This document shows, piece by piece, positions 25,994-54,900 of a DNA stretch of 64,000 bases. Under the pieces are notes generated by a model, which made no database searches, was not told where the DNA came from, and saw only the letters and a list, made by a program, of their open reading frames with translations. The DNA comes from Candidatus Aenigmatarchaeota archaeon. Its GTDB lineage: Archaea; Aenigmatarchaeota; Aenigmatarchaeia; QMZP01; QMZT01. Position numbers and translations under genes: made by a program. Positions within the stretch are counted from its first letter, which is position 1; each line of letters opens with the position of its first letter. Location of the stretch: NCBI GenBank assembly GCA_963726265.1, contig CAVSBQ010000002.1, forward strand, positions 704,001 through 768,000, written 5' to 3'.

Positions 25994-25994
25994 G

Positions 25995-26636: not shown

Positions 26637-26667
26637 AATTTCACACATTTTCTGTTTTGCTGTGATA

Positions 26668-27072: not shown

Positions 27073-27123
27073 GCTTAATCTTTGTTCTGCCCAGAATAAA
27101 AAAGCTGTCGTGAAAAAAATACA

Positions 27124-31000: not shown

Positions 31001-31405
31001 CGCCTGTCCCTCACCAAGGATCTGTACTATCTCGCCGGAGATGAGAAAAAGACATACGAGCTCATGGAAGCCCTGCAGAAGGAGCATTTCATCGAGAGAA
31101 AGATGGGTACAGAAAGCTACCTGCGAGATGTTGAAAATTACGAAAGGATACTCGCCGGCATAAGGAAGAGAAGGACGGAGATCCTTTCAAAAAGCGTCAG
31201 GATGCTCAAGGCCAAAGATGCGCTGAAAAGGCTGAAGGCCGAGGAAGAGCGCGCCATCTGCATGATAACTGAGGCGCAGGAGAGCTATTTCAGGCACGGC
31301 AAAATAGGCAAGACGCGGTATGAAAAAACGGTCGGCGACCTCAGGGCAGAAATGGTAGAGATAGAAAGGCTTGCTGAAATCACAAGGAGCGACAAACATG
31401 CTTAG
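28007..31405 (+). CDS. LamG/ConA-like secreted protein with C-terminal TM and coiled coil; apparently one gene broken by frameshifts in ~28950-29930
   Basis: Signal peptide, LamG motifs (GSLEFWI, WHHVVLLW, DEFIAFNRVLSADEI), fragments 29472..29765 and 29924..31405 (Ig-like domain, helical bundle, TM, cytoplasmic helices). Confidence 0.65.
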
Positions 31406-32177
31406 AAGGCTTTTATTACTGGGCTTGATTATCCTCCTTTTGTCAGCCGCGCCTGCAAGCAGCGAAGTGACCAGGGACTCTGCCCTGCTGGCGATAAGCG
31501 AAGCAGATAGCGTGATTGGACAGATGCAGGAGGACGGTTTTAGCGTAACCTACGCCAATGACACGCTGAACGAAGCAAGGCTGCTGCTGGAGCAAAAATA
31601 TTATGAGGCATCGGAGGCGCTCGCCAGAAAAGTCCTCGATATACGGGATAGCGCGCTCAGGGTCAGCGGCCTCATGGATACGGTGGAGGCGAGGCTATAC
31701 GAGCTGACTGCGAAGGGCTATGAAGTTTCTGATGCAAAGGCCCTGTTCGCATCAGGCCTTTCTGAGTTCAAGCTGGGCAATTTCGATGATGCCGAAAAAA
31801 TACTGGACAATGCGGTCAGCAGGCTCGACGAGATAGAGAGCGAGGAAGCGCTGAAGAGGGCGGGTGCGGCAGGAGGCGTTGATGTCGTAGCTTTGCTACT
31901 CGATTACCTGTGGCTTATTGTAATCGTCTTCCTGGCCGCGTTCATAACAGGGATGAAGCTCAGGAGCGCGTCCGCCGCGAGAAAACGCAAAAGCAGGATA
32001 ACGTTCCTGGAAAGGGAGAAGGCGGCGACGGAGAACAAATTGAAGGAGGCGCAGAAAAAATATTTCGAGAAGGGCGCAATCTCCAAAATGGAATACGACA
32101 TCACGCTGGACAGGCACAGCAGGAAGCTCGCCGAAATAAAAAAGGAGCTGTCTATACTGAAGGCGAAGGCTCGCTGA
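31398..32177 (+). CDS. Membrane protein: signal peptide, helical ectodomain, TM, cytoplasmic coiled coil
   Basis: From ATG 31398 (MLRRLLLLGL). Its C-terminal AQKKYFEKGAISKMEY resembles motifs in the upstream gene. Confidence 0.8.
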   Translation: MLRRLLLLGLIILLLSAAPASSEVTRDSALLAISEADSVIGQMQEDGFSVTYANDTLNEARLLLEQKYYEASEALARKVLDIRDSALRVSGLMDTVEARLYELTAKGYEVSDAKALFASGLSEFKLGNFDDAEKILDNAVSRLDEIESEEALKRAGAAGGVDVVALLLDYLWLIVIVFLAAFITGMKLRSASAARKRKSRITFLEREKAATENKLKEAQKKYFEKGAISKMEYDITLDRHSRKLAEIKKELSILKAKAR

Positions 32178-32625
32178 CCTTGTTCAGCTCGTAGAATTTC
32201 TGCCTGGATATGACTACACCTTTCGTCACGCCGTCCTTTTCCAGCTCCGTCAGGTATTCGCTGCATCTCGTTCTCGACAGATTCAGCTTGACGCTGAGGT
32301 CGGACGCTGTCAGCCGCTTGTGCTTGCTGAGCGTCTCTATCACAATCCTTTTCATCTTCAGTTTCCTTATACTGTCGGATTTCGACCGACTCAACGGGAC
32401 TAGCGATGACTTCAGGTCATCGACGTTTTTTTCAAGATTTCTTGTGAACTTGCAAATATCGTCAAGACGTTCAGTGATGCCCGAGTTCTTCAGCTCTTCG
32501 GCAATCATCTCCCTTATTTTTCCCTTCAGGTATTTTTCGCGCTCCTCTTGAGCGATTTTTGATATGTCTGAGATGTAATTTTTCTTCCCCTTCCCGACCT
32601 TCCTGTCCTGCAGAAACCCGAACAT
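32152..32625 (-). CDS. Coiled-coil plus winged-HTH transcriptional regulator
   Basis: C-terminal LTASDLSVKLNLSRTRCSEYLTELEKDGV...RQKFYEL. Confidence 0.85.
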   Translation of the reverse strand: MFGFLQDRKVGKGKKNYISDISKIAQEEREKYLKGKIREMIAEELKNSGITERLDDICKFTRNLEKNVDDLKSSLVPLSRSKSDSIRKLKMKRIVIETLSKHKRLTASDLSVKLNLSRTRCSEYLTELEKDGVTKGVVISRQKFYELNKVSEPSPSV

Positions 32626-32633
32626 GCTATTGT

Positions 32634-32738
32634 ATTGTCGATCGACAATTTAAACCTTAGTATAACTGTTAATTTTTTATCCTATATATAATCCGACAGT
32701 TACGTATACTATTAGTGTTGTACACTAATGGCCATTAG
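32634..32738. promoter_or_regulatory. Divergent promoter region with three inverted repeats (candidate operators)
   Basis: ATTGTCGATCGACAAT (32634-32649), ATTAGTGT-TGT-ACACTAAT (32711-32729), CTAATGGCCATTAG (32725-32738), plus AT-rich TATA-like tracts. Confidence 0.6.
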
Positions 32739-32770
32739 CGTATGACTAACTTGGGTTGGGTTCAGTTTCT

Positions 32771-33970
32771 ATGAACGGCGCGCCTCCGCGGGAACAGATA
32801 ATAGAGCTCCTTAAGAAGCATCCGGAAGGCCTGACTATCACGACTATTTCTGAGTTGACCAGGCTCCACAGGCACACGGTGACCAAATACGTCTACGAGC
32901 TGAGGGGCGCGGACATCATCCACGAGAGGGAGATAGGCCCCGCGAAGCTGTGCTACATGAAGGACGGCCTCACCAAAAAACAGGAAAAGCAGACCATGAG
33001 CAGGCTCAACAACCACAACATGAAATCGAGCCTGGGCAGCGTGGGCCAGATACAACTTGTCGCCGTGTTCATGTTCCTTGTGCTGGCGCCGGCGGCAGTA
33101 ATAACCGCCTACAACCTTACGAACACGAGCGAAAACACGTCTTTCTCCATGGAGGGATACATCACAGCGAACAACGAGGTCACGTCAGACGTTAGCGACG
33201 GTATGCTGAATGAATTCTGGATGAACATCACCAACGGGACCTTTGGGGAGAATGCAACCAACGAAACCCTGCCTCCGGGGGAAGGAAGCCCGCTCCCGCC
33301 GCAGGACGCAGCAGAGCAGACGAATGAAACAGGCGGAAACGCAACTGTCGATGTCGACGAAACGTTAAACGCAACAAATATCACGCAGCCTGAGAATGAG
33401 GCGAATGAAACCCTTAATATAACCGAGCCATTGAACGAAACCAATGTCACAGTTTCCAATTCGACAATAATAATTTCGGACCTCACCAGCCCGTTCGAAG
33501 TTAACGTCACCGAGGAGTTCAGCATCAAAGCCGTGATAATGTCCCTTTACGGAAGATCGGAAAACATAAGGGTGAATTTATCCGCGCCCGCATCTTTTGA
33601 GGTCGCCAATCAAAATCAGACAATACCATTTTTAGACGAGAACACATCCGCGGAGTTCGCATGGAACGCCACCGCGAGTGAATGCGGCAATTACACGCTT
33701 GGCGTGCTCGCCGAAAGCGACACTTCTTCCGCTTATAAAAATGTTGACGTGTTTGTCGTGTGCCCCGTGGAAAACGTCACGCTGGAAACAGAGACAATCC
33801 AGGGCGACGCCGAAGTGGGCAAGCCTGTCGTATGGAAGAAGATAATCACGGTCAGGAACCCCAACAGGATAAAAGTAGACAACGTCCAGCTCGAGACGGA
33901 AATCCCGGCGAAGGCCTTCAACGCGGAGCTGAAAAAACTAAGACATGTTTTCGGGAATACCGTGACTTGA
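32771..33970 (+). CDS. Giant protein segment 1: winged HTH, TM helix, Asn/Thr/Glu-rich linker, Ig-like (CARDB-like) domain
   Basis: IIELLKKHPEGLTITTISELTRLHRHTVTKYVYEL...REIGPAKLCY, then IQLVAVFMFLVLAPAAVITA. Confidence 0.8.
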   Translation: MNGAPPREQIIELLKKHPEGLTITTISELTRLHRHTVTKYVYELRGADIIHEREIGPAKLCYMKDGLTKKQEKQTMSRLNNHNMKSSLGSVGQIQLVAVFMFLVLAPAAVITAYNLTNTSENTSFSMEGYITANNEVTSDVSDGMLNEFWMNITNGTFGENATNETLPPGEGSPLPPQDAAEQTNETGGNATVDVDETLNATNITQPENEANETLNITEPLNETNVTVSNSTIIISDLTSPFEVNVTEEFSIKAVIMSLYGRSENIRVNLSAPASFEVANQNQTIPFLDENTSAEFAWNATASECGNYTLGVLAESDTSSAYKNVDVFVVCPVENVTLETETIQGDAEVGKPVVWKKIITVRNPNRIKVDNVQLETEIPAKAFNAELKKLRHVFGNTVT

Positions 33971-36900
33971 CATCCCGGAAAGGGAAAGCAGGGTTTTCGC
34001 GGGCTTCACCGAAAGGTTTAACAAAAAAGTAAGCAGATGGAAAGAGGGGACGATGGAGGCGGGCGAGGAGGTCGCCTATGAACTCGGGTATGAAACACCT
34101 GCCCCGCAAAAGGAGGAAATCGAAGAGTACGCGGAAGACGGATGGAAGAAGGAAGTCAGAATAAGCAGCGATTTCGAAGAGGAACATTACAGGAACGTCA
34201 GCGTCACGGTCACGCTGCCCGAGGATATCGATGCTGAGGCCACGATAACCGAGGTCTCGGGCAAAAAAGCATTCGCTGCATGGTGAAGAGCCGAGTTTTC
34301 GAGATGAAGGGTTTCAGGCGGCATGGGCGTTTACTGGAAAGAGCGGGAGCGAAAACAGCCCTTCAGAAGGGATTGACGTGACGCAGGACCCCGTGCATGA
34401 AGTGGAGTTCGCGGATTCTGACGGCGACGGCCAGGCCGACGCCGTTTCATGGAAAGTGCCCCAGCTCTCGGAGCAGACTTACGTGGTGAAGGAGAACGAA
34501 AACAAGATAACTGAAGTTTACGTCGAAGCGCAGAACGGACAGAGAGCCGACATCACGCCCGAGATTATCGAAAAAGCCGACGGCCTTTACGGCATAAAGC
34601 TCGGCGCGAAGAAAAACTTCAGGGCAGGCGCATACAAGCTGGTGATAGTGTCCGGCGACAAGAAAGAGGAGATATGGTTCAACTGGGGTCTGATTTCCAT
34701 AAACACAAGGAGGAGCATCTACCATCCAGGCGAAACCGCGGAGATAATAATGGTCGTCCTTGACAAGTACGGCTATCTTGTCAAGGAGGCGGACGTCACG
34801 CTTGAAATCACCAGCCCGTCCGGAGACAAGACAACCCTGACCACTGCAGCAGGCGAAATCATAGAAAACGGGCCGGGCGTTTACACCGCGGCTTACGATG
34901 TCAAAGAGGAGGGCGAATACGCGCTCTTCGCCAAAAGGAACGACATGGCGAACGTCGAGATAGCGTCCTATTTCGATGCGGCCGCCTTTTACGAGTTCGA
35001 CATAATCCGCAATACACCGGTGACGATTGATCCGACTTCAGGGCCCTTCGAGTCCAACATAACCGTCAAGGCTTACGTTCCGGCTCTCATGTTCACATTC
35101 AAGGAATATCTTCCGAGGGAATTCGAGGTTTTCGACACAGATGCCATAGTCACGGATGAAGGCGAATACAAAGTGCTCACATGGAAAAACGTGACGGACG
35201 GCTCAACCGTCTCGTATGAATTCAACGTCCCGCCCATCTGGCCTTACCTTTACGCCATGGGCCCGGCGAAGGTGATATATAGCGGGCTTTTCGGTGAAAT
35301 GGAATTCACAGAAGCAAGACCATGGATGCTTGCGATCGACCCGACTTATGCATCATATTATCCTTCCGGTTATTCGCTCGTCGGCGACACAGACTACATT
35401 TCCGGCACCATCACTAACCTCAATGCCAACGACGGCAGCTACATGACCTTCCGGCCGTATTACACATTCGATGAAACCACGAACACCAGGGAAGCGATGA
35501 TTACCTACAGGTCCAATACACTGGGAGACAACGACCAGCTGCACTATAAATTGTGGAACGGCAGCATCCAGTCATGGGGAAGCGAGCAGCAGATGAACGA
35601 CGTCGGCGGAACGATAACCGGTAGCAAGGTTGTCTATTGCCCGAGAAGCTCCAGGTACTACGAAAAGATTGCGGTGGCCTACGATGCGCAGGCAAATCCC
35701 GGGTCGCTGGACGCATTCGTATGGAACGGTACCGGATGGACCGATTACGACAACATATTCACGAACATGTCGTTGAATCAAGACGATGCTGTCGCATGGG
35801 ACATAGCCTACGAATCGCTGAGCGGCGATGCCATGTTCATCTACGGCAGGAACTTCACGACATCGTATCTGCCGCGCTCGCAGATTGGCTACAAGACGTG
35901 GAATGGCAGCGCGTGGTCGAGCGAGATGAAGTTCAACCTTTCTACCGATCTCAATGCCTTTTCATGGATAGACATGGTCCCGGACCCTAATTCGGATTAC
36001 ATCGCAGTCGTCATGTTTCAGAACAGCGTCTGGGACAGGTACGCCCTGATATGGAACGGCACGAATTTCATATCCAACACGACCCTGACCACGACCGGCG
36101 GCGCGCAGAACGAGTCCGCCCAGGCGATAGCGTGGGAAGAGACCACAGGCGACGCGATGTTCGTCTGGGGCATTAACACAGCGTCCATCATAAACTATAC
36201 TAAATACTCGAAAACGACCGGCTGGGGTGAGATGCTAACTGCCACCAAGACCGAATGGGGCTCAGACCTCAATTTCATAAAAATGAAAACGCGGCCCGGA
36301 ACAGACTATATGATGCTTGCCGGCGTCTCGGACAACTACGATCTGGATACCATGTACTGGGACGGCACCTCATGGGACACGACGCATCTGGAGCATGACA
36401 GCGGTGTCGGCGACAACTCGGATTCATCCTACAATTTCGATTTTGCCTGGCATCCGGACGGCTCGAACTACGGCGTTCTTGTCTGGTCGAGCAACGTTAC
36501 AAATTCCTTGAACTACAGCGTCTGGGACACTGGAGCTTGGATGCCAAGTAACGCCTCATACAGTGGGGTATCTAGGGCGATGCAATTCATTAAAAATCCG
36601 AGATACACGGAAGGCGATGTGCTCATGCTCGGCTGGGCGGTCAATATAACTTCGTATACCGGAAGGGAGATGAGATACGACGGCGACCTGCAATTCACCG
36701 CAAACGGGACTGTATTTTCCAACAACACCAATTCCTCTGAGTTCGACAGGCATTTCCTCGCTTTCAGCAATTTCGGCGACCCGAACAGCGCGCAGGCGGT
36801 CGTCGAATTCGTCGGGACCGGCGAGAACAAGCCGTGGGACGCGGTCAACGTTTCTGTCGACGCGAGAAGCACGATTGCCGGCAACGTGACGATACAGGTT

Positions 36901-39900
36901 TTCAATTTCCTCACGGGAGCGTATCCTTCATCCGGAAATGGTTATACAACGCAGGCGATATCATCAGGCACGGACACAATGGTAAACAGATACATAAGCA
37001 CCAATGCGAACGACTACAAGAACGATACCTACAACTGGAAGGTGAAAGTCACCTTCACCAACACGACGTATTACGACCCGTTCAATTTCAGCATCGATTA
37101 CATTGTTTTCAACGCGACCATCCCAGACCTCTACCCGACGAACGTTACGGTGCACAACAACGTCACTGCAGTTTATTCAACGCTTTTCGGGACCGGCGAC
37201 CCGCTCGATATAAGAGTGAACATAACCAACTCGAAGCCGGCAACGCCGCTGACAGGCAACCTCACCATCAACATAACCAATTCCACAGGCTACTCATTCA
37301 ACGTCTCCAGGAAGGAGGTGACATGGGCCGCTGCCGGTTCGACGCTGACGAACATGACCAACATCTCCACTGCCGGATGGAACACCGGCAGCTACAATGT
37401 CAACGTAAGCATTTCGTGGTATGACGGGGCGCCATATTCCACTTCGGTCATGTACTATGAGCTTTTTAATCTGACCAACTTGACGGCAAGAATTTATCCC
37501 AGCCCCGGCCTATGCCTTGGAGAAATCGATAATTTTAACGTGACCATTGTGAGCAACTGGACATCCACCATCACGTTCAACATAAGCCGGGTCACACCCT
37601 CCAATTTCACGGTGAGTCCTGTGTCGAAACTGATGAACGCCTCTTTCGAAGCGTCGAACACGACCAATTTCACCGTCACCGTCCCGGCAACCGCAGGAAG
37701 ATACACGATATACTTCAACGTCTCTTACAGAGACCCCAACAATTACAACAAGTCCTTCATCATCAGCAAGGACGTGTACGTGCCGTCGCCGCGCATAACA
37801 GTTTACAGGGAAACGCCGCCGAAAATCGCGAACGCGACCAATTTCAATTCCAGCTTCGTCATCCACAACCTCGAGTGCGGTCCGGCACAGGACGTCTATT
37901 TTGTGGAGCACATCCCAAGCGGATGGTCCGTAATTTCCGCGCCGGGCAATTACAGCATAAATACGAGAAGCGACGGCATCACCGACATAACTTGGTACGT
38001 TCCATATCTCGGCGTGAACGAGTTCCAGATGGTAAACTACACAACCCTTTCGCCTTCGTCCATAACCACGGCGACTTTCGGCAAATGGAACACTTCATAT
38101 CACGACATCGATGGCATAGAATATAATAGCAGCGAGGCATCGACGTATGTCGTGACGAGTGATACCTACGATTACGCCCATTTCTATTTCACGCTGACCA
38201 TGAACGAGACCAACGAAACGAGGGTCCTGCCGACGAACGTGAGCCAATGGTTCATAGTCACGGGCACCAACGTAGGAAGGGCGACTGCGGCGACTGGAGA
38301 ATGGAACTTTACGGTGAAAATACCGACCGGCTGCAACGTGACCAACAACGGGACGGCGACATCATGGGACGCGGGAGGAAGAACGCTGAACTGGACGCTG
38401 AATGAAGACGTGCCTGTCGGCGGCGTAAAGAATTTCACTTTCAAACTCAACTGCACGCAGGACGCGAACGAATACGACCTGCTCCCGACGACGTATTCGA
38501 TACAGACAGGCGAGCTCGAGTATACCGATTCGGTCTCCTATACCGATTACGGAGGCAGCACGACGCGCTCGAACTTCTATCACCCCTTCACACCGGCTCC
38601 GACCGATTCAGCGAGGATAACGAGGTTCGTCTGGTACCTGACGAACGTTGCGCTGGACGCTGGCGAGTATTGCCGTTTCTGGCTGTTCAATGACTCCGGC
38701 ACGGGCAACCTGACGATAAAAGACAACTGGGTCGGCACCGGCGGAACGCAGTACTCCCAAATGGTCGACGAGGACCCGGCCGACTATAACAAGGAGCAGT
38801 TCACCACATTGCCGAACCACGAGCTTCATATACAGATATACGCCCAGGCTAGCTCGGCTACGGCCGAGTACTGCAGGATGACGAGCATAATGTACAGGTG
38901 GAACTGGGGCGGCTACACCACGGAGCAGCAAGGTATGTTCTTCAAGGTCAGGCGCAACACCGAGCCCAAGATATCCGCCTGGAACGTCACACCGGCGCAG
39001 GGCCAGTGGGGTCAGCCCTTCAACTTCACCATAAAGGTTTACGACCAGAGGAATGACACCATAAACGTTTCCCTGTGGTCAAGGCAGGCCGGTACGAGCA
39101 CGTGGAGCATGATAAACTTCACCCAGACAACGAACAGCATCTCGAATCAGTCCATAAATTTCACGCAGCGCTTCTCCTGTGCCGATGCCGACAAGCAATA
39201 CGAATACAAGATTCGCGCAGAGGACCCCTACTATTTCAGGAAGGAAACGCCCGTCGGCTATTACAACGTGACCAGAGACAACGTAATCTTTGACATAATT
39301 TCAGGCCACGGCTCCGGCGCGATCGCCAATCGCAGCTCAGAAAGAACGAATCTCACGCTCCGCCTGAGGATAAGGGACGAGAACGGCTCTTACCTCCAGG
39401 GGCTTAACACCACGCTTTACATATCCCAGCTGGGAACACTTGGCGGCACAATCCTCTGGGACGGCGGCCAGGTCTTCCAGACCAACGCCGCCGGCAACAT
39501 CACATACAATTTCACGGCCGCCGACCACTGCGACAACGAGTCGACGCCATACACCGAAGAAGAATACGAGGTCGGGCCGCACTGGTGGTACGTGAAGATA
39601 AATTCGAACGAAGTCTGCTACAAGCAGACCAACTCGACAGTCGAGGCGGGCGAATACGGCTATTACAATTTCACGACAATAGGCGAGCTGATAAACACGA
39701 TAGTAGCGCCGACAGGCGGAACGATAATACAGCAGGGCAGGGCGAACGTTTCGATAATGACATACATATACAACTTCTGCGAAGAGGCGATGAAAATAAA
39801 CACGACCCATGTCACATTCAATCTTTCCACCGTTGGCGCCAGCTACCTCTGTTCCAGCATCCAGAGGATAGGCGAGAACGTCTACACGTGCACTTGGCAG

Positions 39901-42900
39901 ACTCTCAACAGGACGAACGGCATGTACAACTTCACCATGAAATCCTACGAGGACAACTATTACAACGACACGGTGACTGAAGTTAACGCCGTCGAGATAA
40001 GAACTGTCCCGATGCTCAGGGCCGCGAATGCCACCTACAGGACCGAATCTTGGTCGAGGATGAGAAACTATTCGGTGAACGTGACCGACAACCTCGACGA
40101 CACGGTGAACGTTACCCTTTGGCTCGCAGTCGGCGCCATCGAAGAATCATACGGAAGCCGCTGCTGCGGTCCGAACTGCCCTTCCAACCCAGTGAACTGC
40201 ACTAATGTTGTTCTGAACTGGACCAACATAGAGCTCAACACCAGCAAGCCATGCGAGACCTATGCGGACAAAACCGTGAGATTCTACTTCTCGGCAGAGG
40301 ATACTGAAACTTACACTTATGACACATCAGTCGCCGCTGGCGACTACATAGGCAACAGCGACACGATCAACATGGAAAAGGCCAACACCACCATCGAATA
40401 CGTGGAAGGCAACAACAGCTTCACCGGCGGGGCGCCGGTCTGGTTCAAGCTGAGGGTCAACGACACCGACAACGGGAGTTCCGTTTATATCAGGCCGTCT
40501 TCCGAGCATCCGCTGATATATTTCAACGTAACTACAGACGAGAACGAGAAAGAGAGCTTCGTCTACGTCAACGACACGCGCACGGATTCGGCTGGCTACG
40601 CGAACGTCACCTTCACTCCCGACGGGAGGTTCAGCCTGGGCAACATGACATGGCGCGGCTACGTGCACCCGGGCGACCTCTGCTACAAATACAACATTTC
40701 GAACAACTTTACCGTGGAGATATTCCTGAACTGGCCACCGATGTTCGCCAACATGAGCGTGAACAACAAGACCACGGACAGCAAGGGATGGGGAGGCGGC
40801 TGGAACTTCTCAGTCGAGGTGAAGGACCACGGCTCGGAGGGAGGAAGCCTGAACGTGACCCTGCAGCTCGACACGAAAGACGGCTGGCGCAACATAGAGA
40901 CGAAAAACTGCACGTCCTGCCTTTTGTGGACAAATATAAACTTCACGGATGTCCGGCTCAACTGCTCGGACCTGAACTCTTCGGCGCGTTTCAGGTTCAA
41001 CGTCACGGACAACGCCAACAACGAGAACGGGACAGGCGTCTACGGCACGTTCGGCGTGCTTCCCGATTCCGTCGCTTTCGAACACGTGCGCGGCAACAAC
41101 ACCATAGCCAACAGGAGCGGCTCGCAGAGTGACCTTCTCGTGCTCAGGCTTTACGACCAGAATAACAACACGTACCTTCCGGCAGGAGCGAACGCGACGT
41201 TATGGGTGAGCTGGAACTATTTCGCTTATGACGACGGCTTGGCCGTAAAAACGAATGCGACAGGCCACATAAACAGAAGCTTCGACCCCACGTGCGACAG
41301 CGAAAGCGACTACGAATACGAGGCAAGAAACCAGATATGGCGTGCACAGGTTAATTCGTCGGATACCTGCTACTACCCGAACATAAGCAGCACGTATTAT
41401 CTCAACGTCATGGGCGACCTTAATCTCACGATAATCAAGCCCGACGGCTCGAACAACTACACGTGGGGCGACAATGTTTTCGTCCAGGGCCAGCTCAAGG
41501 ACGACTGCGGCAACACGCTGGACTATGCGAACGTCGAGTTTAACATGAGCGTAGGAAGTCACAGGTACAATTACTCCAACGTCCCCAACCTCGGAGGCGG
41601 CTTCTACCAGGGCGACTGGAATTCCGCCGGAGCGGCGGAAGGCTGGTACAACGTGACCATGTGGGCCAACAAGACTTACCAGCCGAATCCCAACTACAGC
41701 TATTACTACGTTAACCAGACCACGATAGTCCCGCCGTACACGTTCTACCTCAAGACGATACCGATACTGAAATACGCGAATGTCACGCCCAGGCTTGACG
41801 GCTGGGGTGCCGTATATAATTTCAGCGTCAACGTGACCGACGAAGCCGGGGATAACGTAACCGTGATATTCGAGAGGAAGAAATACGGCGTAGACTATTC
41901 CCAGGTCGGGTCTTCGCAGAGCTGCATTTCATGCACGAATTACACGATGCACTGGAACGAGACCTACATGTGTGCCAACCTGAGCGGCAACCCGACGTTC
42001 TATTTCCAGTTCACGGGAACGGACGAGATCGGAAACGAGCGGAAAACACAAACGGCGACTGGCGATTACGTCAACAACGACAACACCTACGTCTTGGATA
42101 AGGACGACGTGCAGATACTTTATTTCGCTGGCAACGAGAGCAAGGTCAACAGGTCAGGAGGCAACTTCACGTTATCCCTGATAATCAACGACACTGACAG
42201 GAGGGCGTACGTCAGCGATTCCGAGGCGACCGCATACCTCAACATAAGCACGAACTCTAGCAACCCCAATTCGCAGAACCTGACCGAGGCGGTCAACATC
42301 ACCGACGGGACGGGCCATGTCAATTTCGACTTCTCGCTCAAGGGAAACTGCAATTACCAGGTCGGAAAGCAGCAATGGTACGGCTATGTGGGGAGCGCAG
42401 ACACATGTTACAAGACCGCCATATCGCCTTCGTTCAACATAACGGTCTTCGGCGACCTGAACGCCAGCATAAGACCGGACAACTACACCAAACACCAGGA
42501 GGAAAACGTTTACATTTACGTAAACATCACGGACGAATGCGGCCATCTTCTATCAGGCCTGAACATATCCGTCCTGATGGTCAAGAATTCCACCCTGAAT
42601 TACACGTGCGGCGACATAGTGGACTACAACAACGGCACCTACCGCTGCAACTGGACGACCACCCAGGCCATGCCAGTTTACAAATACGGCGTCTGGATAC
42701 AGATGAACTCGACCGGCTACTACAACAACGACACGGAATTGCACAATGACGTGGTTTGGCTGCAGAGCTACATAAACAACGCACCCGTTTTCTCAAGCCC
42801 GTCATTCATGCGCGAGGGATGGGGCGCTGCCACGAACTTCAGCGTGCACGTCGACGATCCGGACTACAACAACGTCACCGTCTGGTTCTGGACCTCGGAT

Positions 42901-45900
42901 ACGGGCTCGGAGCCATGGACCCTGAGAAACTACACCAACTGCACGCTTTGCGCCAACACGTACGTGAACTTCTCGCTGTTCCACAACTGCTCCTTCCTCG
43001 GCAACACGTATTATTTCAAGTTCAACGGCACCGACATGAACTACAGCGGCCAGTACGACCTCTCCGGCACGTCGAGCTCGCAGACCTACGATGTCGAAAA
43101 GGATAACGTGAGCGTTTCATTCGTCGCAGGAAGCAACAACGTAGTCAACCGTTCCGGGACGCAGTTCACCAACGAGACCATGATAACCAGGGTCTACGAC
43201 ACCGACAACAAGACGTACGTGGGTTCCGGGGTTTACGGTAAGCTGTGGATCAGATATAATGTAAGCGCTGGTTACGACGGAGGCCTTGAAAACACGACTG
43301 ACGGCAGCGGTTATCTGCGCTTCAACTTCAATCCCGGCTGCGGCTATACAGTCGGCTTCCATAACTGGACTTCGGGCACGACAGTAAACACGTGCTACGA
43401 CGAAGAGAACATGACAACCCCCTCGAATCTCACGATAATCGGCGAACTCATACACACGTTCGACAACGCCAGCTGCGGCGGCAAGGATTACTGCCTGGAC
43501 GGCGAGAACGTCACAATATACATAAACATTAGCGACGACTGCAACGTCTCCGTCTCCGACGCCAGCATGAACATATCCGTTTCGCACGATGTATTTTCGG
43601 CGAATTGCAGCAGCGTCCAGGCGCTCGGCAGCGGGCGCTACAACTGCACCCTTAACATGACCAGCCTGCCCGGAGGCTACTACAACGTCACCGCCGCCAG
43701 CGCAAGGACCTATTTCAACGCGAATTCGACGAAGTTCGTCAACGCGTTCTTCAGGCAGGTCGCGCCATCCCTGAACAACGAGAACGTCGACCCCTCCTCC
43801 ACCTACTGGGCCAGGACCGTTGCAGGCGGACCCAACTTCGCATTCCACGTCAACGTGAGCGACGATGACGACACGCTCACGCTTGAGCTCTGGGAATACA
43901 AGAATTCCACCAGCGGCCCGTGGCAGCTCGCCAACTCGACAGTGCTTTCCGACAGCGTGGGCTATAACGCAACGCGTATCAGGACGTATTATTCCTCTGA
44001 CATAGGTATCTGGTACTGGAAGTTCAACGTCACTGACCAGAGAGGCCTCACATACGAGACCGCGAACCACACACTCGAGGTCACGAAGAGGGCGCTCAAC
44101 ATAAGCCTTCTGGCGGGCAACGAATCGAACGTGACGAGCGTGGGCACCAACAGCACGGAACTGGCCGTAAGCGTGAAGGACGCCGTTGACGGCCAGAACG
44201 TCACGCTTCCCACGTACAAGAAATTCTGGGTCACCACCAACGGCGTCAGCTGGGGTCCGGCGCAGGACATCTCGATTCCGGGTTTCGGCTACATGAACAG
44301 GATATTCGAGCCCGACTGCCCGACCTATTACACCGGAAGGCAGCTGTGGAAGGCGGGCGTAGCCGGCCATACGCAATATTATGATGCCAATTCGAGCAGC
44401 TACGTGCTGTATATATATTCGCAGATGTACCTCAACGTGACGTATCCCAATAACGTGTCCTTTGTCAAGGACAGCTGGGTTCTGATAAACGGGACCATCA
44501 TCGACGAGTGCAGGAACGTTTCCGCCGCGACTGTCAAATTCATATCAGTTAACCAGTATGGCACGGATATTTCGCCGCCATGCACGGCAAACAACTACAC
44601 CGGAGGCATATACAACTGCACGCAGGACATGACCGGAGAGGATTTCGGCCTGAACGCATGGTACAACATCACCATGAACGCTTCGCTGGCGTATTACAAC
44701 ACGACGAGCATGACCTTCCCGCACAGGTACAGGCTTGCTTCTTACCCGGACCTCACCTCGCCCGAAGTCGATCCGCCCGGCGAGGGATGGGGCTACAACT
44801 ATTCCTTCAACGTGACGGTCAACGACCAGGATTCCGGCGACGTCGTGAACGTCAGCTTCTGGTCCGCTTCAGCCTCATCAGGCCCGTGGACTTTCCGCGG
44901 CTCGCAGAATTGGACCAGCGACCAGAACGACCACAAATTCGAGTATCGCCAGGCGTTTACCTGCAGCGATTACACGGCGGACTCGAATCACAGGCTCTAC
45001 TACAAATACAACGTCACCGACACCATAAACTTCACCGACGAGACGAGCCCGACGAATTTCATAGAACTTCAAAAAGACGACGTGTGGTTCGCCAACGTGA
45101 CTGGCAGCGGCATAACCATAAACAGGGAGGGAACGGACACGGGCAGGATAGGCGTGCAGGTTTATGATGACGACTCTTACAGCAAAAACAAGCTCGGCTC
45201 CGGCATAATGGTTTCGTTCTGGCTCACCAACGACTCCGCTAATTACGCTTTCAATCTCACGAACACGACCAACGCGAGCGGCTACGTGTTCTATGATTTC
45301 GAGCCGACCTGCAGCTACGCCGCCGGTTCGCAGCTGTGGTTCGGGGGGACGGAAAATTCGACCTGCTACAAAATGACAAACCAGAGCCAAGGTTCGCAGA
45401 GTCTCGTGGTCCGCGGTCAGTTCAAGAACAATCTCCAGACGCCGGCCAATGGGACGCGCTTCAACGTGACCAACGGCATAACAGTAAGGTTCAACATCTC
45501 CACGGACTGTAGCAACGAGGGCATAGTCAGCGGAGCGACGACGAAAAGCGTGACGCTCATCCATAACCAGACCGGCGCTACATCATCCTGCGTGACGGTC
45601 AACGACGAAGGCAACGGCTGGTACAACTGCACCTGGTCCTCGACAGGTCAGCCCGAGGGCAACTGGAGCATCAACGTCACGACGGGCAAGAACGACTACA
45701 ACCCGAACACGACGGTATGGCTCAACAGGTTCTTCCTCGACAACCGCGGCCAGGCCGCCGAAAACCAGACCTTCGCCCCGTCGCAGGGCGGCTGGGGCAC
45801 GACTTATACTTACAATATCTCCATAGCAGATCCTGAAGGCGACACGGTGACATGCGTCCTGTGGACCAACACCACGGGCTCCGGATGGATAAACAGGGGC

Positions 45901-48900
45901 AGCAGCGCCGTCGCCGGTTCGGGCAACTGCTCGGTGCAGGTGAGCAACTTCAACTACACGGACGTCGGCGCCTCCCAATACAGATTCGCAATCAATGACA
46001 CTTACAACGCGCTTGAGACCGCGAATTTCAGCGGGCCCGTGATAAACAATGACAGCGTTACCGTAATCCACAGCGCGGGCAACAACACGAACGTCAACAG
46101 GAGCATGGACCAGACCACGCTGCTCGGGGTGAGGGTCAACGACACGGACAATGGCCAGCCTACATCCGGCATAGACACGACTTTCTGGGTATCATATACC
46201 AACAATTCCGTGGATTACGACACCGGTTTCCTCAACCAGACCTCTTCGGACGGCTACTCTTATTACAGTTTCAACGCGACATGCGGCTACACGGTCGGCG
46301 TCCACAACTGGAAGGCCGGCGTGACGGATGGCATGATACAACAAGACTAATTCCTCGACCTTCACCGTCAACATAACCGGAGACCTCATACCGACTATCA
46401 TCAGCCCGCTCGGAGGCGTTGCAGGCGTATACCCGCGCGGCCAGAACATAACCCTGCGCGGCTATCTCGCATCGGACTGCCCCTCCGAAACCATGACTGG
46501 CACGCCGTCGACTATGAGATATTCCAACAGCTCGGGCAGCTATTATTGCTCCAATGTCATCGACGACGGCGGAGGCTACTACAACTGCACCTTCAACACG
46601 TCCTCGCTGGCGGTGGGCTGGTATAACCTGACCATGAACTATTCCAGGCAGCATTACAACGCGAATTCGACCACGAAGACCAGCGCCTTCTTCATAGAGA
46701 CCGCGCCAAGGCTCGCCGTCCCGAACATAAGCAAGACACTGGGCGGCTGGGGGGAGACTTACATATTCTCCGTAAACGTGAGCGATGAGGACAGCGATAA
46801 TGTAAGAGTATATGCATGGTACAGGAAGCTTCCAAGCGGTGCATGGACCCAGATAGGCTCCTACAACCAGACCAGCGGCATGAACAAAACCGTTACCTTC
46901 ACCACCTCCTTCCAGTTCACGGACATGGGCAACCTGACGTTCAAGTTCAACGTCACGGACGACGCGGACACCCCCGTTTCTGGCGGCACGCAGTACACCG
47001 ACGAAATCCAGGCGGGCTTCAATTTCACGCTCGAAGCCGACGACGTGACTTTCATTTATGTTGCCGGCAACGAGACCACGATCAACAGGGTCGGAGCTAA
47101 CACCGCCACATTCACACTCTCGCTTTATGATACCGACGTGGGCGCTGCTGTCACGATGAACGAGAACGGCACGTTCTGGGTCACGACGAACGAGAGCGAC
47201 CCAAATTCATGGAGGAGCGCCACACAGAAATTCTTCGTCACAACGCTTAGCTACGACTTCAATCCCGACTGCAATTACCAGACTGGCAAGCAGAAATGGA
47301 AAGGAGGTCTGATAAGCGGCGGCTCGGGCTACTACAAGAACACCAACTCGTCCATCTACAACGTCACCATAACATCCGAATACACTCCATACATATACTA
47401 CCCGAAGGGCAGGAGCTTCGACAGGGATAATCTGTCGATGACAATAACCCTGAGCATGAACCTCACGGACAACGAAGCCGCCTGCGGCCTGGTCAGCGGC
47501 GCCACCGTAATGTTCAACGTCACCAACACCAGCTACGTCCGCCAGGCGACCGACTACGGCACCGGCTGGTACAATTACACCATACCGCAGACAGACTTCG
47601 CGGGCTGGAGCTACGGTTGGTACACTCTTCAGGCAAACGCGACGAGGCAATATTACCCGACCAACGTAAGCACGACTTACCCGGTTCGTTCTATCTTGCA
47701 TCGAGGCCATCTCTCGGTTCGGCAACCTCTGCCAGAGGGTGTCCGTACTGGGGCTGCCCCGCGAACTTCTCCATCGAGGTCACGGACAACGACGGCGGCA
47801 ACGTGACGGTCTTCCTGTGGAAGAAGATAGACACGGGCGGCCAGTGGGAATACCTGGGCAACGCGTCCTGCGGTCCGTGCTCAAGCACGCCGCTGCAGAT
47901 AAATTCGTCTTTCGACTGCGGCGACATAGGAACCAACTACTTCAAGTTCAACGCCACGGACAACTGGAACTACACCGCCACAACCGGCGAAAACAGCAAC
48001 CCCTTCAGCGTGAACCCGAATCTCGCTACAGTCTCTTACGTCACGGACGACAGCATCAGCATGACTAGGGAGGGCACATCCGCCTACAATCTTACGGTAT
48101 TCTTCAACGACATAACCAGAAGCCAGCCGGTGCTTACCGGAACGAACGGCACATTCTACGTGACCATGGACGGCACCAGCTTCGGCTTCGATAATGAACA
48201 CCACGACCAACTCCAGCGGCCACCTGAATTACCAGCTCGGGCCCAACTGCTCGTATTCGGTCGGCCTGCAGAGGTGGCACGCTGTCCTTGATAATGATAA
48301 TTGCTATTACGACGCTTCGCCTTCACCCGAAAACTTCACCTTCACCATAGCCGGCCAGCTCAAGAGCAAAATCGACACGCCGGCGCAGGGCTCCCAGTAC
48401 CTTGCGACGAGCCTGATTCCCATAAGATTCAACGTCACTTCCGACTGCATCTCTGAAGAAGGAAGGATATCGAATTCCAGCACGTCGCTCGAGCTTTATT
48501 CGCCCACCGCCGAGTACCAGCAATGCACGCCACTTTACAACGAGAGCGGCTCCAACGCAGGCTACTACAACTGCACGTGGGACTCGGCAGGCGACCTGGT
48601 TGGCATGTGGGGCATAAGGATTAACGCCAGCAAGACAGGCTATAACATCAATTCTACCCTCTACACGAACTGGATAAACCTCACCAACTCCGCGCCAGAG
48701 GGCAGCAACATGGACGTAACGCCAGACCAGGGAGGATGGGGGAGCATTTTCAACTATTCGATAAACGTTTCTGACGCCGACAATGACAACGTCAACTGCA
48801 CGCTCTTCGTATCAACTGACGCGGGCCTTTCATGGACCCAGAAGGGCTCGATGGTAGTCTACGGCGGGCATGACCTCTGCTGGGTCGAGGTCAGCGATTT

Positions 48901-51900
48901 CAGCTGCCTGGATGACATGGGAACCGACAACTACTTCAAGTTCACGCTTTACGACACGAAGGTGCAGATTGAGACAAGCAACATGTCCGGACCCAACATA
49001 ACCGTCGATTCCGTCAGCATAACGCATCTGCAGGGCAACAACCAGAACGTGAACAGGACTGCTCAGCAGATAACGCTCAAGGTCAGCGTCAACGATACAA
49101 CCAAGGGCCAGGGTATCTCATCCGTGCCCGCCTATTTCAACATAACGCGCGATGGCCAGAATTACACCTATCTTTACGAGGCGACTACCGCCTCGGGTAA
49201 TGCCACTCATACCTTCACGCCAGGCTGCGACTTCAACGCGACGCTGCAGAAATGGCACGTCTTCATAAACGACACGTGCTATGCCAACACGAGCAGCTCG
49301 GCCTTCAACATGACCGTATACGGCAGGCTAAACAACAGCATATTGCAGCCGACGGGCGGGGAATACCTGCGCGGCAGCAACGTGACCATACGACTCAACG
49401 TTTCGGATTATTATTGCGGCCAGCTGGCCGCGTCGGTGCTGCCGACAACGATAAACATATCCTCCGTAAGCCAGCTTACTTCCGTCACCTATCCGTGCAC
49501 GCCCATAGTCAATGACGGCGGCGGCTACTACAACTGCACCTTCAACACGTCCTTGATGAACCCGAGGGGCTACAACATAAACGCTTACACCTCAAGGACC
49601 TACTTCAACGCACACAACTACACGATCACTTATACCGCCGGCCAGCCCAAGGGCTTCTTCGTCGACACGGCGCCTCTCCTCACCTATCCGAAGCTCAACA
49701 CGACAGGCTACGACGGCGACGCGGGCGAGAACGGCTCCTGGTCCGAGCCGAGAAAATTCACGGTAAACGTCACCGACGAGGACGGCGACGTATATGTCGC
49801 CGTAAGGCTGTGGAAAAGAGATTACACTGTCGGCTCGGGCTGGGGCAGCTGGCAGCAGGTCGGCTCGGCAAAGAGTTTGAACACTGAAGCCAATAACACA
49901 CTCGTCGAATTTAACGAGGCCGGCAACCTGACGTCTCCTTACAATCCCGATGGCGACCTTGGAATATGGGAGTACAAGTTCAACGTCACCGACAACCCGA
50001 CCATGCCAAAAACCGGCGGAACGACCTACAGTTACCAAATCAACGGGAGCAACTACACGGTCGAGAAGGACGACATGGAGATACATTACTACAGCGGCGG
50101 GGAAGGAAATATCGTATGGAGGAACGGCTCAGATTCAATCATACTCTCCGTGCAGGCATGGTCAGTCGACCAGCAGAAATATATCGACTCCGGCGAGGCG
50201 GACGCCATGGTGTGGATAACAAAGGACCATTCCACTTTCGAGAACGTGACGGCTCCGGGATACCTATCTAACCTCGGCAACGGCACCATCAATCACACGT
50301 TCTTCCCCAACACAGGAGACTGCGCCTACGACGTCGGCGTCCAGTACTGGATAATAGGCGTGGAAAACAACGCCAGATTCAAGGACACGAACTCGAGCGG
50401 CAACGAGAACGTCAGCATATGGACTTTCCTGAATGGGTCCATAAACTCTCCTGACGGCGAAGTCTATCTGAAGGACCCGAACATCAACGTTACCTTCAAC
50501 ATGAGCGTCTGGGACGAGTGTAACGAAGGCGTAACGAGTCCCGACGACGTGAGCATAACGCTTACAGAAATCGAAGGCACACAGAAATACGCCGGCATAA
50601 CTTCCATACAGGACCTCGGAGGAGGGGAATATTTCTACAACTGGAGCACGGAAAACATCGAAACGCTCGGCATGTACAACATGACATTTGCCATGAGCAA
50701 AAATTATTATACCGACCTTTCGCTTTTCCGCAATCCCGCATTCCAGCTGACATCAGCGCCTCAACTATCGTTTAACGTAGACCCTCCGCTTGAAACGTCA
50801 GGCGAAGGCGGCTGGGGAGAGGACTACGACTTCAGGATAGCGGTGATGAAATCTGACGGCCTTCCGTTCAACGTCAGCCTCTGGTACAAGCACAACCAGT
50901 CATCGGAATGGACGCTGCTGAAGATGGTGGAATTGATCAGCGAAGGCTGGAGCAATCCGAGCGACTTCTACAACATGCAGTTCAACTGCACCGACATAAC
51001 GCCGGCGAATGACAACGCCTCCTACAAGTTCAACGCGAGCGACCAGTTCGGCTACACCGCCGAGCTGCCGGCAATAAACTTTACCATATTCAAGGACGAC
51101 GCCGCCGTTTATTACGACGACGCGGGCTCCAACATAATCATAAACAGGGAAGGCTCCTCCACCGGCCTGTTCAGGGTCAGGATAAACGATACCGACAGGT
51201 CACTTGTCGGCGTAGGAAACAACATATCGGGCGTATTTTACGTAACCACAGACAACGTAAACTATCTCACAACCTACCTCAACAGCACTAATGCGGATTC
51301 GAGACTCGTACTGAACTTCGACCCGAACTGCTCGCACGGCTACGGGCCGCAGAAATGGAAAGGCGGAACGTTCGGCGACACATGTTACAAAGACGTGAAC
51401 GTGTCAGAGAGATCATTAACAGTCAACGGCACGCTGAAGAACAACATCCAGCAGCCCAACTGGACCATCGGCCAGCCGTCGTTCAACGTCACGGACCAGA
51501 TCCTGCTCAGGCTTAATACGACCTCCGACTGTTCCGGCGAGGGAATGATATCAGGCAGTTCGGTTAGCTTGTATCTCAAAGCCCCGAATGGAAGCGTATA
51601 CTCATGCACGCCGGTCAACAGCGAAACAGGCGCTGATGCCGGGCGTTATAACTGCACTTGGAATTCGAATGACAAGCCGGAGGGCAACTGGACCGTCAAC
51701 ATGACGTCCACGAGGCAATACTTCCTGCCGAACACGACGACTCTTACCAACTGGTTCTGGCTCGAGAACAAGAACGCGACCGAAACCGACCTCAAGGTCA
51801 CGCCGCCACAGGACGGCTGGACCAGGCTCTACAACTACACCGTCCTGGTCAACGACGCCGACTCCGACGTGGTCAACTGCTCACTATATATCAACAAGTC

Positions 51901-54900
51901 CGACGGCCAGGGCTGGCTATACAAGGGCTCCAACATCCTCTACAACGCAAGCGGCATAGTGAACAGGAACTGTTCCGTCACCGTCCATGACTTCACGGGC
52001 GACGACATCGGCAACAACTCCTTCCGCTTCCTCATCAACGACAGCGAACCCGCGAACGTCCACTACACCTCAACAGCGTATGGCCCGTATCTCGAGGAGG
52101 CGAACACGACAGTGGGTCACCACGCTGGCAATGGCTCGACCGTGAACATATCCGACTATTCCGAGGATTACACCACGCTTCTTTCAGTGCAGGCCAACGA
52201 CACTGACAATGAATCCTTCGCCCCGAATGCCAACGTGACATTCTGGATGTACTATAATCTGACAGCGATGGCACCGGGATATGTCACGCCGACGAACTCG
52301 ACGGGCCATGCCAACTACGATTTCAACCCGGACTGCAACTACTCGGCCGGCAACTGGGAATGGTTCGCTGGCGTGACCGACGCGTATTACGAGGACAAGA
52401 ACACGACGAGGTTTAACGTAACACTTTTAGAAGACATAAACGTGAACCTGATTTCACCGCTTGGGCTGGAGGATGTCAGGGGTAACAACATAACCATAAG
52501 GTTCGGGCTTTATGACTCGTGCAATAGGAACATAACAGGCGTGTCTGGCATCAACATAACGATGTCAAATGATATCACGGGCCAGATATTCAACTGCACC
52601 AATATCATTGGGGAAGGAAACGGCGTATACAACTGCACGTTCAACACTTCGGCCAACCCGGGCATCATGCCAGCGGGGAGTTATGGCATAGAAATAAATT
52701 CATGGAAGCAGTATTACAACCGCGACAATACCAGCCTGCCTTTTATAGGTGATTCCCAGTCTTTCTACATAGAAACTCCGCCATCGCTTTTCAGCGCGAA
52801 GGTGAATGCGAGCCAGTTGGGAGGAAGCGTAGGCTCGTGGTCCGAGGACTGGAACTTCAGCGTAAACGTCACGGACGAGGACGGCGATGAGGTCACGGTC
52901 GTTTTGTGGGAAAGGAAGTACACGTCAGGCTCGGGATGGAGCAGCTGGCAGCCGGTCGGGAGCACAAGCTGCGGGGAGGGAACGGAAATTTGCAACAACA
53001 ATGTCGTTTCCATACCTGTTGATGGTTATACCCACTATAACGGACAGCAACCGACGACGGCGAATGACACTTGGTCATTCAAATTCAACTGCACGGATGA
53101 AGCCGGAAAACCAACTGAGGGCGGAAATCAGTACAGCTACGAAATATCGGGCTATAACTACACGATAGAAAGGGACGACATAAACATAACACTCTACGCC
53201 GGTTATAATACCACTCTGGACAGGAACGGCACGGCGAACTTGACGCTGTCGGTAATGGTCTATGATATAGACCTTGGAAGAAACCTGACCGGAGGCGAGG
53301 CCAAGGGCAATGTGTGGATAAGCAAGAACGGGACCAATCTGGAATACGTGACCCAGGTCAACGTTATCAACGGCTTATTCAGCTACACTTTCCAGCCCGA
53401 AGACTGCAATTACAAGGTGGGAGTGCAGCACTGGATAATAGGGCTAATCAATTACAACAACTGGTTCAAGGTCACCAACGCGACAATGGCCAACATAACG
53501 CTTTACGCCCCCCTAAACGGAACCATAAACACGCCGAATGGTGAGACATATCCCGGAGGGACCTATCCCGGGGAATATATGATCCCAATATGGTTCAGCG
53601 TCTTCGAGATGGATTGCCCTGCGAACTACGTCGGGAATTTGGATAATAAATCTCTGAAAATAAACCCCTCTGACGGAGATCCAAGTTATCCGACTATCCT
53701 TGGTAGCAGCATATATGATTGGAGCAATGGAAGCTACAATTATTCGTGGGATTCAAATAAGGTAAAGGAATGGTATAACATAACGGCAATTCTTGGGGAG
53801 CAATATTATTACCCGATTAATGTAACCAAACCGAATGCATTTGCACTTTCAAGTGCGCCACAACTTTCCTCGCCCTCGCACAGCATCAGCTATCCGGTTG
53901 GCGGTGACGGCGGCTGGGGGGAAACGCATAGGTTTACCGTCTATCAACAGGACGCGGACGGGAACAATCTAACTCTATATTTATGGTACAGGTTCACGCC
54001 ATCGGATACTTGGATTTTGCTTAACCAGACCGTTGTCCAGGGGGATCCTGGGCAGGCCACGCCGTATTTCTATGATTACAGCGGTTTCGACTGCTCGAAC
54101 ATAACGCCCCCCGGTGACAACAGCCAGTTCAAATGGAACGTCACGGATACGGCCAACTTCCACGACGAAACAGACGTGATTAACTTCACCGTCCTGAAGG
54201 ACGACGTGTCAGTGGATTATGTTTCGGGATTCGACCTGAACATAAACAGGGACGGAACCAACAGCGGGCTTTTCGTGGTCCAGATAAACGACACTGACAG
54301 GAACAATGTCGGCGTTGGAGAGGGAGTGCCCGGCATCTTCTACGTGACTACGGACGGAACGAATTTCCTCACCACTTATCAGAACGACAGCACGTCCGAT
54401 TCGATGCTGTCGCTTAACTTCGACCCGAACTGCTCGCACAGCCCTGGCATCCAAAAATGGACCGGAGGCGTCTGGAACGACACGTGCTACAAGGACAGGA
54501 ACATGACGGGTTCGCCGAGGGAGTTCACCGTATACGGCCAGCTCAAGAACAACATCCAGCAGCCCAACTGGACGAGCGGCCAGCCGTCGTTCAACGTCAC
54601 GAACCAGATATTGTTCAGGTTCAATACCACTTCGGACTGTTTGGTCGATGGGCTGGTAAACAACACAGGGACGTCCATATATCTGCATGCGCCCAACGGA
54701 AGCAACTACACCTGCTCGCCCATGAAAAACGAGACCGGCGTGAACGCCGGCTACTACAACTGCACGTGGGACTCCAGCGACAAGCCCGAGGGAAATTGGA
54801 CGCTCAACACGACCTCGGTTAAAACCTACTATTATCAGAACCAAACCATACTTACCAACTGGTTCTGGCTCGAGAACAAGAACGCTACCGAGACCGACCT

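Follow-up and report, generated by a model that had tools for sequence, protein, structure and literature searches.

The stretch of DNA examined here, hereafter called the window, comprises 64,000 nucleotides (positions 704,001 to 768,000 of the forward strand of contig CAVSBQ010000002.1; G000:C2:704001-768000) of the genome assembly GCA_963726265.1 of a Candidatus Aenigmatarchaeota archaeon, which totals 1.13 Mb in 4 contigs and is 88% complete. From the ATG at 32771 onward it carries, on the plus strand, a gene for a giant surface protein, the predicted product of which begins with a cytoplasmic winged helix-turn-helix (wHTH) domain, followed in the same frame by the helix that anchors the protein in the membrane. 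We consider it fairly likely that this DNA-binding head binds an operator, site 2, in the promoter of its own gene, by which the output of a very costly giant protein would feed back on its own transcription. Autoregulation is favoured because site 2 tracks the fused helix-turn-helix (HTH): it is present in 15/15 loci with the head and in 0/5 without it. The protein would then act like a transmembrane transcription regulator (TTR) with a giant adhesin-like ectodomain as its “sensor.”

The winged-helix head and its proposed operator

The start codon of the giant gene is separated by a spacer of 145 bp from a divergent gene (32152..32625, minus strand), which encodes a soluble wHTH regulator of 157 residues (Pfam HTH_24, 34.0 bits vs a cut-off of 21.9). 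A homologue of this regulator is adjacent and divergent in 14/14 head-bearing loci (32-72% identity) and in 5/5 head-less loci; regulator and fused HTH are weakly alike (37% over 35 residues, E 0.004). The spacer is strikingly conserved in an alignment of 15 genomes and contains two sites, each unique in the genome. Site 1 is a perfect 16-bp palindrome, ATTGTCGATCGACAAT (32634..32649), lying 9 nt from the divergent start codon and adjoined by TTTAAA (32649-32654); it is kept as TTGTCG(A/G)(N0-1)TCGACA in 15/15 loci with the head and 5/5 without. Next comes, as a conserved block of the same alignment, the TATA-like box TATATATAA (32683..32691, plus strand), the putative promoter element of the giant gene, followed by TCCGACAG (32692-32699), which resembles the half-site TCGACA. 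Site 2 (32719..32734) reads TGTACA-CTAA-TGGCCA, the local form of TGTACA-N4-TGTACA, and overlaps palindromes at 32711-32729 and 32725-32738. It lies between the TATA-like box and the start codon, ca. 45 nt before the ATG. A general inverted-repeat search of 32560-32800 gave none of these; the zero-spacer palindromes came from a separate script.

The head-bearing loci with site 2 span three families of the order. The paired TGTACA hexamers, 4 nt apart, are exact in 13 of the 15, the exceptions being G041 (TGTATA) and the window (TGGCCA). By contrast, TGTACA is absent from all five head-less orthologous loci (G030, G043, G033, G026 and G052; 2.1-3.5 kb each), which encode an orthologous small membrane protein without HTH; the divergent regulator and site 1 are retained in each of them. 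Families f5 and f6 each include loci with and without the head. Site 1 is thus associated with the divergent regulator (20/20 loci) and site 2 with the fused HTH. In the mechanism we propose, the divergent soluble regulator would bind the site 1 palindrome (TGTCGA-TCGACA) and the fused HTH the double-hexamer operator in front of its own start codon; because site 2 lies behind the TATA box, the effect there is probably repression.

The paralogous HTH genes are without sites 1 and 2 but have palindromes of their own of the form ..CA-TTAA-TG.. (ATCATTAATGAT, GACATTAATGTC), and ATTAATG occurs in 9/12 of their upstream regions, compared to a maximum of 7 in 200 shuffles. This suggests that autoregulation may be a habit of the whole HTH family. 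The core CATTAATG is found 7 times in the genome, in no case adjoining another gene of the HTH family of the head. One ACATTAATG precedes a coiled-coil gene (C2:785134) and was ascribed to chance.

Two further observations concern the operator region. The TGGCCA variant creates a 14-bp palindrome, CTAATGGCCATTAG, in the window (32719-32738), and the same letters are found in contigs X1 and X2, which derive from two other studies. Very short, deep contigs (37-69 bases, word depth 18-35) from the metagenomes of X3 and X4 cluster at 32700-32743, and an operator-region motif is probably common to several organisms in these samples.

The head itself (residues 1-81; 32771..33013, plus strand), with its recognition helix around HRHTVTKYVYEL, was modelled by AlphaFold as helices at residues 6-16, 23-30 and 34-46, two strands forming the wing (50-55 and 58-63) and a helix from 67/69 to 81, with predicted local distance difference test (pLDDT) scores of 86-98. 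A Foldseek search with the 399-residue model gave only immunoglobulin-like (Ig-like) matches, and a separate 90-residue model of the head was needed for the HTH. The best matches of the latter were MexR (E 3.9e-4), an ArsR, SlyA, PcaV and the archaeal plasmid protein AspA (TM-scores 0.57-0.71; AspA 0.71), and the family profile matches the HTH of TtgV (E 5.2e-5). Since these matches are spread over MarR, ArsR and IclR regulators, the head is, according to the models, a generic MarR/ArsR/IclR-like wHTH; its identification is based on family profile and fold, not on its own Pfam score. The dimerisation or effector (ligand) domain of MarR/IclR proteins is absent from the models, in which the membrane helix directly follows the 80-residue wHTH.

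Relatives of the head were sought among 1.84 billion representatives, which yielded 308 with E ≤1e-3, of which 106 had E ≤1e-10. The 100 aligned family members match HTH_IclR (79), HTH_11 (54) and MarR_2 (43). The best 150 representatives include 60 free-standing HTH proteins, a form that measures 70-100 residues, 77 with a membrane helix after the HTH (45 of them of 261-400 residues and 10 of >1,000 residues) and 2 of other forms. The family of the head is large and archaeal and has free-standing members as well. In the remaining 11/150 the HTH is C-terminal to a conserved domain of unknown kind of ca. 135 residues, in proteins of ca. 200 residues (P0039, P0072, P0078, P0085, P0091, P0101, P0105, P0124, P0138 and others).

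The head was sought in 61 related Aenigmarchaeota genomes, this genome included. The N-terminal 120 residues are matched over their full length in 16 of these (E 1e-28 to 1e-77; 48-78% identity; three families of the order), and the head architecture is, therefore, not a product of chance. No stop separates HTH and membrane helix here or in the 15 relatives. In genera g1, g6 and g9 the head and the giant share one frame, and in G014 an intact frame of 14,526 residues has the same HTH-membrane-helix start and the ATPase end described below; the recurrence of the wHTH-helix-giant architecture in DPANN relatives, which a first, sequence-only reading of this DNA had proposed to look for, has thus been found. 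In G042, G010, G015, G019, G006, G041 and G047 the head resides on a separate protein of 336-397 residues, consisting of HTH, membrane helix and Ig-like domain. In the four of these that were inspected (G042, G019, G010 and G041), the giant gene has a short leader of its own and lies downstream, directly or one gene on. Since the small protein of G042 aligns to 32786-33610 and residues 385-819 of the G042 giant to 34032-35343, the window gene is, by these alignments, a lineage-specific fusion of two neighbouring genes.

The giant frame, its breaks and its far end

The frame opened at 32771 contains, in this order, the wHTH (MNGAPPREQIIELLKKHPEGLTITTISELTRLHRHTVTKYVYELRGADIIHEREIGPAKLCY...), a basic linker, ...NMKSSLGSVG|QIQLVAVFMFLVLAPAAVITA and a sequon-rich stretch. 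Residues 1-115 (32771-33115) are free of stops, and the span from HTH to membrane helix is free of indels in contigs X1 (32902-33541) and X2 (32916-33218; 0 differences), while contig X3 shows 48 substitutions and 0 gaps over 32707-33399. The earlier statement that wHTH, linker and membrane helix share one frame is, consequently, upheld. The same reading had the frame lead without interruption into more than 10,000 residues, and this was not recovered: the frame closes after 399 codons at the TGA at 33968-33970, and such a length is only attained (ca. 12,900 codons) when breaks are read through. Downstream the gene consists of overlapping open frames, each in a changed frame, at 33966-34283, 34249-46347 (4,033 codons), 46337-47803, 47431-48288, 48164-58792 (3,543 codons), 58656-60224, 60205-62217 and 61784-68116, with a last one at 68328-71597, beyond the window. 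In all, there are at least nine frame changes and no same-frame stop, and the gene takes up ca. 3% of the 1.1-Mb genome. Its body (34249..64000, plus strand), which leaves the window at the window's end, is repetitive and homologous to the intact 14,526-residue protein of G014.

The first two breaks (33965..34338, plus strand) were studied by DNA alignment to G001, by same-genus proteins and by metagenome contigs. Relative to G001, the window contains five single extra bases, the first near 33965 and the others between 34278 and 34338. The same-genus orthologues of G001 (866+ residues, ended by a contig edge) and G002 (3,868+ residues) are unbroken and collinear over both breaks. Contig X1, from another public metagenome (4 substitutions in 320 bases, i.e., ca. 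98.7% identical), is without the extra base at 33965, and contigs X3 and X4, also from other public metagenomes and ca. 92% alike, are without all five. The X2 contigs are identical to the window on three pieces but leave a gap (33270-34475) and are thus uninformative at these breaks. Further on, the break near 61890/61907 is crossed straight by the intact G014 protein (residues 10917-11325 and 11331-12012). Since the breaks are private to this assembly and all are frame changes without a same-frame stop, they are quite probably errors of assembly (or sequencing). We rejected the view that the 399-residue open reading frame (ORF) is a true stand-alone gene, comparable to those of 336-397 residues in G042, G010 and G019, since orthologues from the same genus and the other contigs read through the stop once one base is removed.

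The membrane helix QIQLVAVFMFLVLAPAAVITA (residues 93-113; 33047..33109, plus strand; modelled as a helix at 91-117) is the sole hydrophobic segment among the first 399 residues. The 27 residues before it contain five K/R and one D/E, the 27 after it no K/R and four D/E, and N-x-S/T sequons number 23 in residues 114-399 and none in 1-92. From the charge bias and the sequon distribution, the N-terminus is predicted to be inside and the HTH on the cytoplasmic face, with the residues after the helix outside until the far-end helix. The ectodomain had been called rich in glycosylation sites, with which the 23 sequons agree. It starts (33110..33967, plus strand) with a disordered, sequon-rich linker (residues 114-230), followed by an Ig-like beta-sandwich (232-330; pLDDT 93-97) and the start of a second, as delineated by AlphaFold, Foldseek and the sequons. 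The sandwich resembles MG, CARDB and NEW3 domains; Foldseek matched MG/CARDB-like domains and Fsx1, and NPCBM_assoc is matched by 19/100 family members. Further into the repetitive body, sequon density is 5.9-6.5 per 100 residues. The first large piece matches MG2 (35.8 bits); Pfam gave no match for the second (48194-58795) or for the pieces 46493-47806, 60238-62220 and 61835-63999.

Outside the window, the far end (G000:C2:772328-775597, equivalent to 68328-71597 and to L041:4328-7597) has a hydrophobic stretch, a K/R cluster and a P-loop ATPase with the Walker A motif AAGATGSGKS, after which comes a coiled-coil tail; the same features close the intact frame of G014. DUF87/HerA is matched by the far ends of this genome and of G014 with 41.1 and 36.9 bits, respectively (cut-off 23.2), and HerA_C is above its cut-off of 22 in both (29.8 bits in this genome). 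The protein is predicted to re-enter the membrane near this end and to finish in a cytoplasmic HerA/VirB4-like ATPase. The ATPase tail, found in 35/61 relatives, invariably terminates huge frames (14,526, 13,519, 13,462, 13,314 and 8,399 residues, and others), and it is the best conserved part of the giant (92-94% identity within the genus; C-terminal piece 94% identical to G002). In G004, of the same genus and 91% complete, the tail was met with 92% identity in a 458-residue frame (G004:C3:230369-231613). When G004 was searched with the HTH-membrane-helix head, no head was matched, the best hit being a free-standing HTH (E 1.9e-5).

The genes that follow the giant gene (L041:7681-18997) encode a coiled-coil protein of 542 residues and a surface protein of 1,977 residues with NPCBM_assoc and a C-terminal membrane helix and tail, and then a MinD/ParA-like ATPase (AAA_31, 66 bits) and further coiled-coil proteins. 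A short G(F/L)I(S/T)..(A/E)Y-like motif, which may be akin to SHOCT, recurs in the C-terminal tails of the giant and its next two neighbours. Upstream, the window contains small pilin-like ORFs (25610-27171, minus strand; M..[KR]G|Q), one of which scores 20.2 bits on Class_IIIsignal (cut-off 23.7). Beside them lie surface-protein genes with Laminin_G_3 (28007-29077) and NPCBM_assoc (29924-31405). At 15-28 kb in the window there are 12 overlapping ORFs on the minus strand.

Tether, leader or DNA-handling partner

Several observations weigh against autoregulation through site 2. The contrast between 15 and five loci is drawn from related genomes and represents two or three independent transitions only. 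The second hexamer is changed to TGGCCA in the window (1/15), while the recognition helix is unchanged. The centre of the site varies: the core CATTAATG that it has in common with the paralogues is present in only 11/15 orthologous promoters. Furthermore, 2/5 head-less loci (L042/G030 and L044/G033) carry the palindrome AGTTGCAACT where head-bearing loci have GTTGTACA, and a different factor could, therefore, use this position. A palindromic operator requires an HTH dimer, which is putative here, and the HTH of the window by itself misses the Pfam cut-offs (HTH_11, 20.0 bits vs 25; HTH_IclR, 17.8 vs 22). Transcription start, promoter and binding are all deduced from the sequence, and the frame breaks, if real, would mean that the gene is dead in this genome.

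It is rather improbable that there is no functional fusion here at all, i.e., that translation begins at Met84 and the HTH is not part of the surface protein, or that the whole gene is a decaying pseudogene. Met84 corresponds to the ancestral start of the head-less orthologues, the assembly has its nine or more frame changes and the operator its unique variant, all of which would fit such a view. However, the span from HTH to Met84 is stop-free in all 16 genomes, and many fused relatives (such as P0011, P0012 and P0016) have K or another residue in place of Met84. Within the first 400 residues, conservation is highest over the N-terminal 120 (78% vs 66% identity to G001). Nor does decay sit well with breaks that are missing from X1, X3 and X4 and that comprise no same-frame stop in ca. 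12,900 codons, or with a tail so close to that of G002.

We give even less credence to a role in DNA handling, in which the HTH would be not a transcription regulator but the DNA-recognition partner of the C-terminal HerA/FtsK/VirB4-like ATPase, and the giant part of a device for transfer of DNA or effectors between symbiont and host. In FtsK, a winged-helix gamma domain is the DNA-recognition partner. Both ends of the protein would be cytoplasmic, the tail is a P-loop ATPase by its Walker A motif and its DUF87 score and is the most conserved part, and nanohaloarchaeal giants with the same tail have been proposed as secretion channels (PMC10266531). Yet the tail is found in 35/61 relatives and the head in 16 only. 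Giants of 13,314-13,519 residues have the tail without the HTH, and the ATPase is, therefore, independent of it. In the split genomes the HTH is on a separate protein, and the only copy of its candidate DNA site in this genome is in the promoter of its own gene.

The head may stay tethered or may be cut off. The boundary between head and anchor, Met84-KSSLGSVG92|Q93 (33020..33049, plus strand), has the appearance of a vestigial short leader with a conserved G-Q motif at which cleavage may occur. Head-less orthologues start here with short leaders ending in AKG|Q, SKG|Q, KKS|Q or ELG|Q (KG|Q in 3/5), and giants with MKSTLG|QSEIL; because of these starts, the preferred interpretation of Met84 (MKSSLG) is that a short signal leader originally began there, in front of which the HTH was added. 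Class III (prepilin-like) signals are cut by the A24 peptidases EppA, FlaK and PibD, and the Methanococcus EppA substrates have leaders ending in Gly at -1, with Gln at +1 (PMC3875500). The window boundary is like these in having Gly at -1, Gln at +1, ca. 20 hydrophobic residues and a would-be cut on the cytoplasmic side. The genome also encodes one Peptidase_A24 (G000:C2:446649-446987; 31.9 bits vs a cut-off of 26.5) and nine short-leader ORFs with M..[KR]G|Q and a hydrophobic stretch, all with K/R at -2. The HTH might thus be an over-long class III leader, such that the A24 peptidase cuts G92|Q93 and frees an HTH of ca. 92 residues that represses site 2, one for each exported giant, which would be left with a pilin-like N-terminal helix. 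That the free-standing paralogues, at 70-100 residues, are like the putative freed piece would agree with this, as would the boundaries of the 77 relatives with HTH and membrane helix: GQ occurs in 35 (12 [KR]GQ and 23 with another residue at -2) and [KR][SA]Q in 13 more.

Such a release is nevertheless doubtful. The residue at -2 in the window is Val91, whereas it is K/R in each of the genome's nine bona fide prepilin-like ORFs, and Glu is absent from +5; a folded leader of 92 residues compares with 5-13 residues in pilins (PMC3875500); and 23/77 relatives are without any Q motif. The Pfam model Class_IIIsignal (PF04021) matches neither residues 76-125 nor the leader of the G042 giant at E up to 10. 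The first description of the G|Q as loosely class-III-like, minus the basic -2 residue and the Glu at +5, is accurate, with the addition that many relatives do have KG|Q. Immediately beyond the helix, on the outer side, a conserved (I/V)xA-Q-N-x-T might instead be cut by signal peptidase I, which would leave an HTH stub in the membrane. We consider equally uncertain the further step of export-coupled counting, in which each inserted giant of up to 14,000 residues would, upon A24 cleavage at G|Q, send exactly one soluble repressor back to the double-TGTACA operator; if true, the cell's most expensive protein would be metered by completed export events. We know of no folded transcription factor that serves as a class III signal leader, and none was found in the literature searched. 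The earlier proposal of an autoregulator released by proteolysis is, consequently, supported for autoregulation, through the operator in its own promoter that tracks the head, and doubtful for release; the G|Q of the window is without K/R at -2. Were the head indeed cut at G|Q, this would be a new use of the prepilin-peptidase pathway.

Comparison with known systems

For contact between DPANN archaea and the host cells to which these are attached, giant surface proteins are the prime candidates. Autoregulation by the head would mean that a control element, with a recognisable operator, is built into the costly protein itself. The existence of head-bearing and head-less relatives amounts to a natural experiment, and the link from surface to expression is directly testable.

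TTRs such as ToxR, TcpP and CadC form a known and widespread class, of which single-pass proteins are the commonest (ca. 56%; Demey et al., 2023; PMC10269533). The part of that paper drawn on here makes no mention of DPANN. Like TTRs, the window protein combines in one polypeptide a predicted cytoplasmic DNA-binding domain with one or more predicted transmembrane regions (cf. PMC10269533), and control of a nearby operon or its own would be a further likeness. Unlike ToxR and CadC, its HTH is MarR/IclR/ArsR-like and not of the OmpR/PhoB type: Trans_reg_C is absent from the Pfam scan of the protein, which lists HTH_11, HTH_IclR and HTH_69 only, and from the 25 families shown of the 65 matched by 100 members. 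It further differs from TTRs in its outside part of 12,000-14,000 residues, compared to a small sensor domain, and in having a second membrane helix and an ATPase tail. It would extend the class to an extreme, one chain combining a “sensor” of 14,000 residues with a secretion-type ATPase. ArnR and ArnR1 are small proteins in which the HTH is followed by C-terminal membrane helices, and they have no giant ectodomain. Likened by description only, these regulators of Sulfolobus acidocaldarius are similar in being membrane-anchored archaeal HTH proteins for surface structures, i.e., archaellum and pili (PMC6396743).

The closest body plan is that of the nanohaloarchaeal “SPEARE” giants SVXNc_0300 (9,409 aa) and BNXNv_0298 (8,880 aa), which consist of a Sec signal, ca. 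75 Ig-like domains, a membrane helix, a VirB4/TraG-like ATPase and a coiled coil (PMC10266531). When body plans rather than sequences are compared, the window protein and SPEARE, both from DPANN, have in common an N-terminal signal or anchor, an Ig-like start, a membrane helix, a VirB4/TraG/HerA-like ATPase and a coiled-coil tip; the SPEARE-type C-terminal arrangement of helix, HerA-like ATPase and coiled coil was found here in full. SPEARE differs in being described with a plain Sec signal peptide (PMC10266531), whereas the protein studied here has a DNA-binding head and a greater length. In the literature searched, supplements aside, there is no description of a wHTH on the signal or anchor of such a giant, of its operator or of a comparison with and without the head. 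The body plan equals that of the published nanohaloarchaeal giants and, therefore, the giant fits a known DPANN type with an ATPase tail, to which the DNA-binding head is the new element.

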